The notes beneath the pieces are model-generated. The model worked only from the letters and a program-made list of their open reading frames with translations. It had not been told where the DNA came from and ran no database searches. A program made the translations under genes and the position numbers. A stretch of DNA of 64,000 nucleotides, taken from NCBI GenBank assembly GCA_964016885.1, contig OZ024746.1:72230001-72294000 (forward strand), read 5' to 3'. This DNA is from Eledone cirrhosa. Lineage: Eukaryota. Positions 1,097 through 19,774 of this stretch are shown in pieces; position 1 is the first letter of the stretch, and each line of letters starts with the position of its first letter.

Positions 1097-1171
1097 CGAA
1101 CCCGTTCAGCTATTTAGACGGCGTACTGAAAGTTCATGTACACCAAGTGAGAGAGCTAGAGATGAATATAG
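1097..1171 (+). CDS. BCR/ABR-like C2-RhoGAP gene A, exon (start of C2 domain)
   Basis: ccacag|...ATAG|gtttgt, 75 nt, phase 1-1; NPFSYLDGVLKVHVHQVRELEMNI resembles the ABR/BCR LYGFLHVIVHSA C2 start. Confidence 0.85.
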
Positions 1172-2054
1172 GTTTGTTATTCCATTATATTCCTTCATTC
1201 TCATGAGCTATCAATTTCTCCTCTCATCATTTGTGGATAAATCTTTCCTCTTTATTATATTACAGACATAAAATGTATTGTAAAGTTGTATTGATCACCG
1301 GATAAAATATCTTGTGTTATTTAGTGGCGTTTCTTTATAATTTAATAGAGTTAGGAATTGACAGAGTCGTTAGGGAGACGGATTGAATTCCTTGCAGCAT
1401 TTTCCCCGGTTCTCTGTTCTCTCTGAGTTCAAATGCCATCGAGCTGGGCCATCTTTGCCTTTCATTCTTTCAAAGACAATAAAAATAATACAAGTCGAGG
1501 GAACAGGAATTGTTAAAAAGTCTGACTAGAAGATCTGTGGTATTTGTCCCTGCTCTAAGCGTTATGAGTTCAAATTCCGGCACTTTCTTTCAAGTGTTGT
1601 GAACAGCAGATAGTTCCGGATGGAAAGATCAATGGAAACATAGTCTCGTTGGTCTTATCGGACGATTAGCTTCTTTTTTTTCGCACTGAAGGGGACTATG
1701 TTGTTCGTTTTTCGAGAGGCTCAGTAAATTAACGTACTAAAAATGTCAATCTATTTATCTTTCGTTTGTCGGTCTTTCTAGCTAGATAGATATATTGATG
1801 GATTGATGGATAGATAGATAGATACGTGTATGAGGGTTGTATATTTTGAATGTCTGCGTCTGTGTGCAAGCATATTACTGCGTTCTACTTTTACTGTTTA
1901 CCTAGGTAGGCAATTATCTATCAAACACATTTTACTCTCCCTCTCACACTTTCTATTTCTATGTGTGTGTGTGTGTGTGTGTGTGTGTGTGTGTGTGTGT
2001 CTTGATCCATGAATATATATATATATATATATATATATATATATATATATATAT

Positions 2055-2253
2055 ATAGGAAAATAGTCAGGACCCCGACGGCTGAGCTCCGGCCGTTTCG
2101 ACAGTTATTTCTGAAGTAGTTCAGAAATAGCTGTCGAAACGGCCGGAGCTCAGCCGTCCGGGTCCTGACTCTTTTCCTATTACCCACTCTACTACCCATA
2201 GTATCGAGTACTCTGGTGCGTTATGGTCCACCTGCTCCCTTACCACTCTTTGT
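2055..2253 (+). mobile_element. Short fold-back element (family C) between (TA)n tracts
   Basis: ~61-bp inverted arms 2055-2115 / 2120-2180 with a 4-nt loop; related copies at 25868-26025, 27677-27732 and ~57270-57370. Confidence 0.7.
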
Positions 2254-2764
2254 TATATATATATATATATATGTGTGTGTATATATATACGTATATCATC
2301 ATCGTTCTGCGTCCACTGTTCTAAGCTCGCATGGGTTGTTTGGTTTTTTTCAGTAAAGCGTCGTATTGATACAAACCTTCGTAAATCAATTTTAAAATTT
2401 CATGCATTTTAACCCTGGTTATTTTATTCTTTTACACACACCTACACACACATATATATATATAACAACTTCAGCCCTCCCTCCTAATATTCTCTATAAA
2501 AACCAAATAGGTCCTCAATAATATTATTCTGATGAAATGACAGTAAATAATAACATTGAAATATTGAATGTCTGCATAACTAAAACTTTGTAGATAGCAG
2601 CTGTTTTCAGGTTATGTAACTGTTATAGAAACACGTGTCAATAAATTCCTTTCAACTAAACTGTATCCATTCAAATCTTTCTATATATATATATATATAT
2701 ATATATATATATATATATATATATATATATATATATATATATATCCGTCTATATTCTCTCTCAG

Positions 2765-2970
2765 CTGCCTTCATCACACTGCAAGTTGACAGTTTCGGCG
2801 GTTACTTCAACAAGTTATTCACCACTGAGATATCAGAATGTAGCTGCTGCCCTTTTTTCGACGAAATTTTTGAGATTCCACTGAACTGTTCTCAGCATCT
2901 GAAAATATGTCTCTACACAAAACATCAGGAAGCAATTGAATTTGAACTATTTTCTACAGGAATATACGAT
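2765..2970 (+). CDS. Gene A exon (C2 domain core)
   Basis: ctctcag|...GAT|gtaaat, 206 nt, phase 1-0; AFITLQVDSFGGYFNK..PFFDEIFEIPLNCSQHLKICLY matches BCR/ABR C2 LYCTLEVDSFGYF..PxWxEEFEIELEGSQxLRILCY. Confidence 0.9.
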
Positions 2971-3597
2971 GTAAATCTTACTGTTTCGTCTCCCCTTAAC
3001 TTTATAAAGAGTATATAGATCCAGGGCCTGATTTATCGGGGGGGGGGGCACCTTTTGTCAAACAGGGCCCGCTCTAGGAACAGCCCAGGGCACCACAAAC
3101 TTGAAATTTCCCTGGCCTGCCAAAATCTAAATATGACCCTGAATAGATCCTGACCGAGGAAGGAGTCCTACAAGGTGAAGTGGGGGATTCAACGGGTATC
3201 ACTGACTGCTGTTCTCCACGGAAATCATTTTGCAATCTCGTCTGCTGGGCCCAACTGAGGTATACCATCCAACCAAGAATTGTAGAGTTGGATTGCGGCG
3301 TGGACTGACTGATGCAATGGTAGTTGCTGTCTGCTGATCTCTACAGGATGGCCTTTGCCATCTTGTCCGAGGAGGCACAGCTGAGAGACACCCTCTAACC
3401 AAGGGCTTAGAGTTGACACAGCGAGGTAAACTGGCTGATTATGTGGATGTCGCTGGCTGCTGTTTTCCAAAGCAATGCTGAAACATAACTTCCAGCCAAG
3501 AGTGTAGAGCTAACCCCTCGCCCATTTTTCCTCCATCAATTTTCTTTGTTTCTTTTTTATTATTATTATTATTATTATTATTATTATTATTATTATT

Positions 3598-17825: not shown

Positions 17826-17929
17826 GTGAGTACAACTAACTCCCTCCATCCACGGGCCTTTGACTCCTTAAGCAATCCTATGGGTGCCCTTGTGTCGTAC
17901 GGCATTTAAAATCCAGCAGAACCCATCCC

Positions 17930-18655
17930 ATTCTATGTCTGGATTTCTAGAATGTACCAATGTATACATAGTCTAACTGCATCGGGTCATCCAGATCGTA
18001 TTTCGATAGGGTATTCTGTGGCGATGTAGTCTAGCATAGGTTGTCCACAATTGAAAGTAGCCGACTACACAGCCCACAAATTTGTGATCTGTATAGTTGA
18101 CATAGATAGGTTTTACTGACGGGGACCGGTTGCTGGCACGTACAGAAACTGGATTAGTTAATTAGTTATGTGTACGTTGACGAGGACAATATTCAAACAA
18201 CAGATGGTTGTTTTCTCGGAAGAGGGCCATTGGATTGACATCGATGTGATTTAGCAAAGGTTTAGCGATACAGAGAGCTTGTTAAAAACCACGGCTGCGT
18301 GGTCAAAGCTAGGGAACGTGCTTTTAAACATTAGAGGACGAAAGCCGTTTGATGGACGAGAGGGGCTACGGCACGGCGAGACAACAACTGGGACAGGGCA
18401 CTTGCCCCAGAGATCAGGGCACCCGTGGCTTTAGGAGTTTTTTTTTCTACAAGCATCCCTCGAACGTCTCCTCCCTATTGAGGAATTCCCTTTGTTTAAT
18501 TTTTATTGTTACCTTTCTTTTTCACTATTGTTAAATCTGTTTACACACCAAACCCACACACCAACACACACACACACATACACAATCTGTTTTCGTCCTG
18601 TGTCGTCATAATGTTTTTCTTGGTGTTAACCCTTGAGTGAATAACAAAAATCATT
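17930..18655 (+). mobile_element. Internally deleted, decayed Tx1-like copy
   Basis: Nucleotide similarity to 5225-5810 joined to the 8120-8340 3' UTR; ends at (TTA)n. Confidence 0.75.
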
Positions 18656-18695
18656 ATTATTATTATTGTTGTTGTTGTTGTTGTTACCATTTTAG

Positions 18696-18801
18696 ATATA
18701 CAGAATCACACGAGAAAAGTGTTGGCCCTTAGGTCTTTGATTCACCAACTACCTCATGAAAATCGTTGCGTTTTCTTTCATCTTTTGGATCATTTCGTCA
18801 A
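18696..18801 (+). CDS. Gene A exon (RhoGAP)
   Basis: cattttag|DIQNHTRKVLALRSLIHQLPHENRCVFFHLLDHFV(K)|gtaaga, 106 nt, phase 1-2; matches LPEANLLTFLFLLDHLKR. Confidence 0.92.
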
Positions 18802-19584
18802 GTAAGATGTCTGCCTCTTCCACTTATTCTCCAATACCATCATCATCATCATCATCATCATCATCGTCATCATCATCGTCATAATCATCATCCATGTCAT
18901 CATTCTCTATTGACTTTCTCTACTCTTTGCAGCTTTCAATTGTGATCCTATGATAGGATAATTAGCTCTGACCAATTTCGATCTTGCACATATATAGAAT
19001 AATTCTTTCAGCATTAGTTCAGCAAATACTGTGATGGGAGTTATAAAATTACAAAACCTGTCCGGAGTTATCTCACACGCTTAATTTAAAATGATAATTC
19101 TTTTTTATTAATATTATTACTATTATTACATATCACTGCGTACTTATGTCATGTCAGGTTTTTACTATACGAGTTTCCTCACATTTTAATGTTTTACTTT
19201 TAATGCTCACTGTGTGAAAGCATGTGACTTGGTGGTTAAGGTATTCGACTCACGCCCATAAGGTCGTGTGTTGTATCCTTGAGCAAGGTACCTTATTTCA
19301 CATTGTACCAGTTCACATGGCTGACGAAATTTAAGATGTACCGGTAAACAAACTGTGACACACCGAATCTTCCCAAGAACTACGTTAAAAGTGCATGTGT
19401 CTGTGAAACACTCAGCCACTTGCACAATAATACAAGATCGACTGTATTTGTATTTAAAATGCTCAGCTACTTACAAGTTATTTTCACGGGGGAAGTTGTT
19501 ACGTTATTCGAACAGCAGACACCGACGGATCTAACAACAACCACAACAACACTAACTGTATTTTCATTTTGCTTGCCTCTACAG

Positions 19585-19774
19585 AGTTTGTCAATACCCC
19601 AAGAATAAAGTAACTCCAACTACGGCAGGAAAGATACTCTTTTCTGTGTTTTACGACTTGGAATCTGCAGACAAATTAAGTGAGAAGACAGATCAAGAAA
19701 TGAAATTTGCCGCCGTCATGGTATACACCATGGAGTTACGAATGGGAGGTGTTAATTTATACAGTATTTCATAA
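19585..19774 (+). CDS. Gene A terminal coding exon
   Basis: ctctacag|VCQYPKNKVTPTTAGKILFSVF..MELRMGGVNLYSIS*, phase-2 start; AATAAA overlaps the stop codon. Confidence 0.88.

Follow-up and report, generated by a model that had tools for sequence, protein, structure and literature searches.

RhoGAP-like domains that have lost catalysis are already known, as is their origin by gene duplication. In the accessible text of one survey, the human domains without an arginine finger are OCRL1, INPP5B, ARHGAP36, DEPDC1/1B, FAM13B and ARAP2, to which p85 is added (PMC8305018), and ARHGAP36 is described, in the available part of its report, as having a threonine at the finger and acting non-catalytically (PMC8128262). 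The gene described here, gene C, comes from Eledone cirrhosa and lies in a window of 64,000 nucleotides on contig OZ024746.1 (below, C6) of assembly GCA_964016885.1, that is C6:72230001-72294000 of a 3.0-Gb genome, whose homologues are octopod. Judged from its sequence, it is a member of the BCR/ABR family by descent in which the arginine finger and most GTPase-contact residues are replaced. The human finger-less group and p85 resemble it in combining a RhoGAP fold with absence of catalysis but have other architectures and independent origins; p85 lacks the binding determinants and the other human domains lack the finger, whereas the octopod paralogs lack both. The full names given above for the survey's short names DEP1/2, CNTD1 and INPP5P are presumed. 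By analogy, gene C likely works most like an ARHGAP36- or p85-type GAP-like module.

Two further systems come close. The Caenorhabditis elegans protein SYD-1, of PDZ-C2-RhoGAP-like architecture, misses critical residues, had no detected GAP activity and is proposed to be a scaffold, as far as the available parts of PMC4398414 and PMC8918327 go. Gene C is similar in that a C2 domain is followed by a GAP-like domain without critical residues, but SYD-1 belongs to the SYDE family, has no such gene cluster and still binds its GTPase, and the octopod SYD-1-like gene on contig C2 keeps its arginine. In the wasps Leptopilina and Venturia, RacGAP1 duplicates underwent accelerated evolution and lost the arginine and the binding residues in almost all copies, the parent gene being kept (10.1101/2023.06.05.543686, from the part available). 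The octopod genes share with these families a lineage-specific duplication, fast evolution, arginine loss and a retained parent. They differ in their parent gene, and have four domains and no sign of secretion, whereas the Leptopilina proteins are truncated and secreted.

Within the window, gene C consists of ten forward-strand exons between positions 1097 and 19774, all introns being GT-AG in a spliced alignment to the Octopus sinensis ortholog P0002. Joined, they give 361 codons and a TAA without internal stops, and they are the same ten that a sequence-only reading of the window had put together in frame. All ten are matched in colinear order by the O. bimaculoides ortholog P0001 (tblastn E 1e-29 to 0.13); with the reversed window as a control, the best match of P0002 reached only E 5.3. 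The first of them, exon 14 of 23 in the whole gene, encodes the first C2 strand (1097-1171, tblastn match and spliced alignment). It is followed by the C2 core exon with the BCR-type motif VDSFGGYF (2765-2970; 76% identity to P0001; Pfam C2 E 0.035, below the cut-off), a C2 exon whose donor at 8886 agrees with the ortholog register (8821-8886), an extra exon of 60 nucleotides (nt) that forms an insertion in the C2 region and is restricted to C and its orthologs in Octopus (11171-11230), and an exon for the last C2 strand and the linker toward the GAP domain (12060-12169, tblastn and spliced alignment). The RhoGAP domain is encoded by the helix A exon of 62 nt (14571-14632) and the arginine-finger exon of 78 nt (16720-16797), both identical in size and phases to those of BCR, by the helix B exon (17691-17825; Pfam RhoGAP E 0.0015), by an exon of 106 nt (18696-18801; Pfam RhoGAP E 0.002) and by the last coding exon including the TAA (19585-19774, spliced alignment). 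A model of nine exons, one of them just 20 nt long (10341-10360), is also open but was displaced by the ortholog-matching exons 11171-11230 and 12060-12169, and including a candidate exon at 14041-14087 did not yield an open frame.

The sequence-only reading had described a C2-RhoGAP gene and pointed upstream for possible DH-PH exons. Thirteen further exons encoding DH and PH domains were found there, at C6:72199362-72228510 (1.5-30.6 kb upstream of the window), and they make gene C a DH-PH-C2-RhoGAP gene. The whole model has 23 exons, all GT-AG, and 757 open codons; its first exon remains open upstream, and the N-terminus is undefined. The BCR/ABR domain order was recognized from Pfam matches of P0002 (RhoGEF E 2e-7, RhoGAP E 6e-19, and C2 E 0.005, the last below the cut-off), from PH-type strands in the structural model of P0002 and from exons for all domains in C. 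RhoGAP Pfam scores of the orthologs are 69-72 bits. Aligned with P0002 over 741 columns, gene C shows 58% identity; with P0001 the figure is 61% over 482 columns. An AlphaFold2 model of P0002 built from a 61-row alignment (mean predicted local distance difference test score, pLDDT, 82.5; predicted template modelling score, pTM, 0.52) has helical DH, PH-like, C2 and GAP segments, and residues 497-518, the counterpart of the 60-nt exon, have low pLDDT. In Foldseek, the GAP part of this model matches myosin 9b, p190A and p50RhoGAP with template modelling (TM) scores of 0.83-0.86 by target, and the model also gives DH-PH structures such as Dbs and Asef. The RhoGAP fold is retained in the ortholog as modelled.

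In this fold, the catalytic and GTPase-contact residues are changed. At the finger, where the BCR gene on contig C4 has CGA for Arg, gene C has CTT for Leu (16743-16745), and GIYR reads FLYL as the sequence-only reading had it. In both Octopus orthologs the finger residue is Ile and the Lys319 site is Leu; because these orthologs, 58-61% identical to C, already carry Ile, the loss of the finger is old. In paralogs A, B, C and D the finger residues are Val, Ile, Leu and Ala, and in the alignment the residue is aliphatic in 9/9 paralog rows and Arg in 12/12 BCR/ABR rows. Residues are numbered after p50RhoGAP as given in PMC8305018 and transferred by motif spacing. The part of that survey available, from which the residue list of Amin et al. 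2016 was taken second-hand, counts Lys319 and Arg323 as binding determinants, likewise Asn391, Val394 and Pro398, and the role of the secondary lysine is confirmed in the accessible text of PMC3852207. Besides having Leu at the position of the p50RhoGAP finger Arg282, gene C keeps one of the four determinants Arg323, Asn391, Val394 and Pro398. The motif LKLYFREL indeed reads LLWYLRAL, with the Lys319-equivalent changed to Leu (17759-17761), a lysine that among the genes of this cluster is retained only in paralog B. The motif NKMxxxNLAxVFGP is degraded as first read, with Thr for Asn391 (19622-19624), Lys for Val394 (19631-19633) and Ser for Pro398 (19643-19645). The partner Met of the GTPase face is changed as well, the Gly of the FGP motif is Phe, and the helix F-G segment keeps 0/12 invariant positions.

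The same pattern holds across the family. In eight paralog rows, 0-1 of 8 GTPase-contact positions are kept, against 28-31 of 63-64 other invariant GAP positions, and the octopod BCR retains 6/8 contacts. In a test that left out the fragment P0007, five rows show the contrast between contacts and other positions at p 0.009-0.018, and B and D show it at p 0.13; the rows are related and non-independent. The family has an invariant Asp and an invariant Cys of its own, and its members mostly carry a basic residue where Val394 would stand. Since the GAP core is kept and the GTPase face is lost, a loss of binding together with catalysis is favoured. Gene C very probably has no meaningful GAP activity and probably does not bind Rho-GTP, to judge from these residues. 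The losses of the finger and of the supporting Lys and Asn, on which the sequence-only reading had based a derivative without catalytic residues, all stand, and catalytic death is what they predict.

A weak or rewired GAP, in which a basic residue two positions after the finger (+2) or RNA editing supplies the positive charge, seems improbable. A, C, D and their orthologs do have a basic residue at +2 (Lys in A and C, Arg in D), the AAA codon found there is editable to Arg, and stabilisation of the switch regions is given as a further mode of GAP action in the available text of PMC8305018. Nevertheless, the +2 residue of B is not basic, a charge at this position would sit out of register, C no longer has the supporting Lys and Asn, and adenosine-to-inosine editing has no route to Arg at the finger codon of any of the four paralogs. 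An alternative exon supplying the finger, one of the findings that would have overturned the first reading, was found neither in the flanking introns nor elsewhere in the 464 kb scanned: the introns flanking the finger exon of C hold 94 candidate phase-1/1 exons, ten of them with Tyr/Phe-Arg and none GAP-loop-like, and a six-frame scan for the finger motif over 464 kb gave no match. Read contigs from three DNA-like runs of one sample cover 16651-18018 and list no difference at the finger codon, the sole exonic difference being 17821 C>T, synonymous by sequence. As this sample may be the assembly's own, the agreement is not independent support.

A separate BCR gene is present on contig C4 at about 92.31-92.38 Mb (L071-L079). 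Besides the motif GVYRVSG it retains Arg, Lys, Arg, Met and Asn at the respective sites, and it shares 81% identity with P0031. Gene C and this BCR have 15 of 22 introns in common in position (within 3 columns) and phase, 13 of them within 1 column, which indicates duplication at the DNA level. The best full-length non-octopod matches are mollusc and brachiopod BCR/ABR proteins. In a tree of 32 rows, restricted to BCR/ABR, the nine paralog rows form one clade (100/100) with a stem of 2.38 changes per site, which sits in an open fork with mollusc BCRs (94/94). The spacer between the finger and LKxY is 34 residues long in 158 of 166 canonical-pattern sequences, many of them vertebrate near-copies, and 36 residues long in the C4 BCR, P0031, one other RhoGAP and all four paralogs; the longer form common to octopod BCR and the paralogs would speak for a duplication inside cephalopods. 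The paralogs share with the BCR/ABR family their domain order and most intron positions, and with octopod BCR the two-residue longer spacer, but they are about 20% identical to BCR, have lost the finger and nearly all contacts, lie as four neighbours on another contig and have a further eroded DH domain. A BCR/ABR derivative, as first proposed, is upheld by tree, introns and matches, but not as a sole copy: gene C is an extra paralog among four, and the C4 gene keeps its Arg.

The C4 BCR is itself diverged, with a branch of 1.1 changes per site and a CR3 that reads KPIGQ; its Pro398-equivalent is Gln, and the equivalent of PH residue R723 is Asn in this genome. Other matches of the BCR query in the genome belong to other families and were set aside, namely SYD-1-like on contig C2 and GRAF-like on contig C3 (translations read by eye). 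On C3, the locus L060 (about 319.07 Mb, reverse strand) is an intronless frame of 875 codons, of GRAF/oligophrenin-type BAR-PH-RhoGAP-SH3 order by reading, which keeps the arginine finger and may be a retrogene.

The four paralogs lie within 0.36 Mb of C6 as two convergent pairs, A at 71.99-72.07 Mb (+), B at 72.07-72.16 Mb (-), the window gene C at 72.20-72.25 Mb (+) and D at 72.29-72.34 Mb (-, to about 72.343 Mb). All four models are open, with the least confidence in that of A, where four exons were hand-picked. The last three exons of D fall in the window on the reverse strand, with its RhoGAP helix B exon at 62959-63093 (89% identity to O. bimaculoides P0004), a RhoGAP exon of 106 nt at 61832-61937 and the last coding exon at 58620-58815 (the last two from tblastn and the gene model). 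Identity among the four is 25-32%. The 10 matches named out of 150 listed include divergent-type proteins from O. bimaculoides, O. sinensis, O. vulgaris and Argonauta hians and no squid or nautilus member, the squid, cuttlefish and nautilus genomes themselves not having been searched; the restriction of the cluster to octopods is provisional. Three fragment sequences best match A, B and D, respectively.

The low identity to BCR could be taken as decay of functionless duplicates. This is largely refuted and has a very slight chance indeed, as the four copies have open multi-exon frames and canonical splice sites, their orthologs are annotated in Octopus species (those of B and D with isoforms), and C shows none of the marks of a pseudogene (stops, frameshifts, broken splice sites, neutral divergence). 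Selection was assessed by simulation on ortholog proteins and not by the ratio of nonsynonymous to synonymous substitution rates. Neutral mutation of C to half the ortholog divergence produced a mean of 10.9 stops and 0/300 stop-free runs, and B and D likewise gave 0/300; the gene is therefore maintained, under purifying selection, as the sequence-only reading had held. In B, C and D, changes are also biased toward conservative ones, the fraction of positive-BLOSUM changes between C and its ortholog being 0.47 against 0.29±0.03 under neutrality. Columns identical between C and P0002 make up 146/213 of the BCR-conserved positions and 262/473 of the others (p 0.0014).

The paralogs evolve faster than BCR by sequence comparison, with ortholog identities of 48-60% against 81% for BCR, if P0031 comes from a comparably distant species. 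Together with the long stem, this could fit fast-evolving tissue-restricted proteins (reproductive, immune or gland) detached from Rho signalling and membrane docking, for which the wasp RacGAP1 derivatives offer a precedent of duplication followed by arginine loss (10.1101/2023.06.05.543686, in the accessible part). Such a fate is given only a small chance: all four domains and the intron pattern are retained, unlike in the GAP-only signal-peptide venom proteins of Leptopilina, hydrophobicity in 19-residue windows stays at or below 1.62 throughout the modelled parts (the true N-termini lying outside the models), and conservation is highest in the PH lipid strand.

Among the four paralogs, the best-conserved 15-residue windows are this PH strand (0.76) and a C2 strand (0.66), the best GAP window reaching 0.51. 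The PH strand bears the equivalents of BCR R723 and R726, both kept in C. In the available text of PMC5727386, these two residues bind phosphoinositides and the PH basic set is R723, K724, R726 and K739. Paralog D keeps 4/4 of this set, residues being mapped via a motif in mammalian BCR rows. For this mapping the length of human BCR was taken to be 1271. In the DH domain of C, the CR1 Glu is replaced by Asn, in a weak CR1 alignment, and the CR3 Lys by Phe. The O. sinensis ortholog keeps the CR1 Glu and also has Phe in CR3, and the CR3 Lys is gone from C, B and D. The loss of DH residues in C is less remarkable because the DH domain of human BCR is already a pseudo-guanine nucleotide exchange factor (pseudo-GEF) under the CR1 Glu/CR3 Lys criteria given in the available part of PMC5727386.

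Taken together, we lean slightly toward gene C being a non-catalytic, membrane-docked adaptor that arose from an octopod BCR duplicate. BCR would have been duplicated as DNA in the octopod line, the parent keeping the Rac/Cdc42 GAP job, and the copy would have lost the finger and the binding residues before being duplicated again. The PH domain would dock the protein onto acidic lipids with the assistance of C2, and the helical bundles of DH and GAP may provide contact surfaces for non-Rho-GTPase partners. Several points weigh against this adaptor. The Arg323-equivalent is retained as Arg in C (17771-17773), and in C alone the contrast of 1/8 contacts with 31/64 other positions is not significant (p 0.068). 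Only 2/4 of the PH lipid residues are kept in C, the K724-equivalent being Phe and the K739-equivalent Ser. In D, the GAP domain retains 80% identity from one species to another, so that some GAP surface is strongly constrained there. The fold model is that of the ortholog P0002 and not of the window's own protein. Finally, the tree puts the paralogs in an open fork, and their placement as sister of octopod BCR is one that the approximately unbiased (AU) test merely fails to reject (p 0.549).

Some of the same points would suit the main rival, a GAP that is catalytically dead but has kept its hold on GTP-loaded Rac or Cdc42. Acting as effector, decoy or scaffold, it would shield or sequester the GTPase or compete with the C4 BCR. 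The fold appears intact in the model, and C and D have Arg or Lys at the Arg323 position. In the accessible text of PMC8305018, Arg-to-Ala GAP mutants and OCRL1 bind without hydrolysis, and worm SYD-1, which lacks two GAP residues, still binds MIG-2-GTP according to the available part of PMC4398414, a further point against the adaptor. Such binding is nevertheless unlikely in C, where other residues stand at the positions of Lys319, Met, Asn391, Val394 and Pro398, no helix F-G invariant is kept and the FGP Gly is Phe. Of the scaffold or decoy that the sequence-only reading had suggested, the scaffold is the likelier part, and the decoy is less likely because the GTPase-binding residues are lost too. 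Beyond the non-catalytic adaptor, a rather doubtful extension may be ventured from the sequences, namely that the four octopod genes form a family whose full-length products are double pseudoenzymes, dead both as GEF and as GAP. Their active-site face, with the aliphatic finger residue of all nine sequences, the family's own Asp and Cys and the mostly basic Val394 site, would have been rebuilt as a shared binding surface for a non-Rho-GTPase partner in an octopod-specific membrane-signalling complex.

Other features were observed in and around the cluster. At its end (last exon from C6:72069491), paralog A carries a long tail, first rich in Pro/Glu and then basic, that is absent in B, C and D. 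A divergent homeobox gene lies between B and C (L006:4280-4429, reverse strand; C6:72184431-72184280, next exon from about 72181885). It matches Pfam Homeodomain at E 8.5e-8 and, among solved structures, OTX2 first and DUX4 next; an intron stands directly before its WFQN motif and position 50 is Gln, features that we take to give it a PRD-class look. Between C and D, a PIF1 helicase frame on the reverse strand (21890-23278; Pfam E 1.8e-53) is probably a Helitron remnant. The gene C intron between exons 2765-2970 and 8821-8886 harbours an element of the long interspersed nuclear element (LINE) type at about 3800-8100 (+), split into several frames, with a reverse transcriptase at 5737-6804 (Pfam RVT_1 E 8.7e-25). 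Long near-perfect inverted repeats at 11490-11790 and 26090-26470, seen by eye in AT-rich non-coding DNA, are possibly similar to miniature inverted-repeat transposable elements (MITEs).

No paper on an octopod BCR-like cluster was found in the literature listings, in a search that did not extend to subscription journals or to supplementary files of octopus genome papers, where the genes or their expression may be listed. The surprise is limited, since pseudo-RhoGAPs arising by duplication are known and no phenotype or tissue is attached to these genes. The orthologs already stand in RefSeq under automatic BCR/ABR names, and the labels 'BCR' and 'ABR-like' imply a Rac GAP activity that the paralog sequences do not support. 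What emerges is an undescribed, conserved and apparently octopod-restricted gene cluster. With a parent that looks active and four diverged copies, found in several species, it provides a natural series for the passage from a RhoGAP to a non-catalytic module, and the cluster also lets one ask what the PH, C2 and DH domains of BCR do without catalysis.

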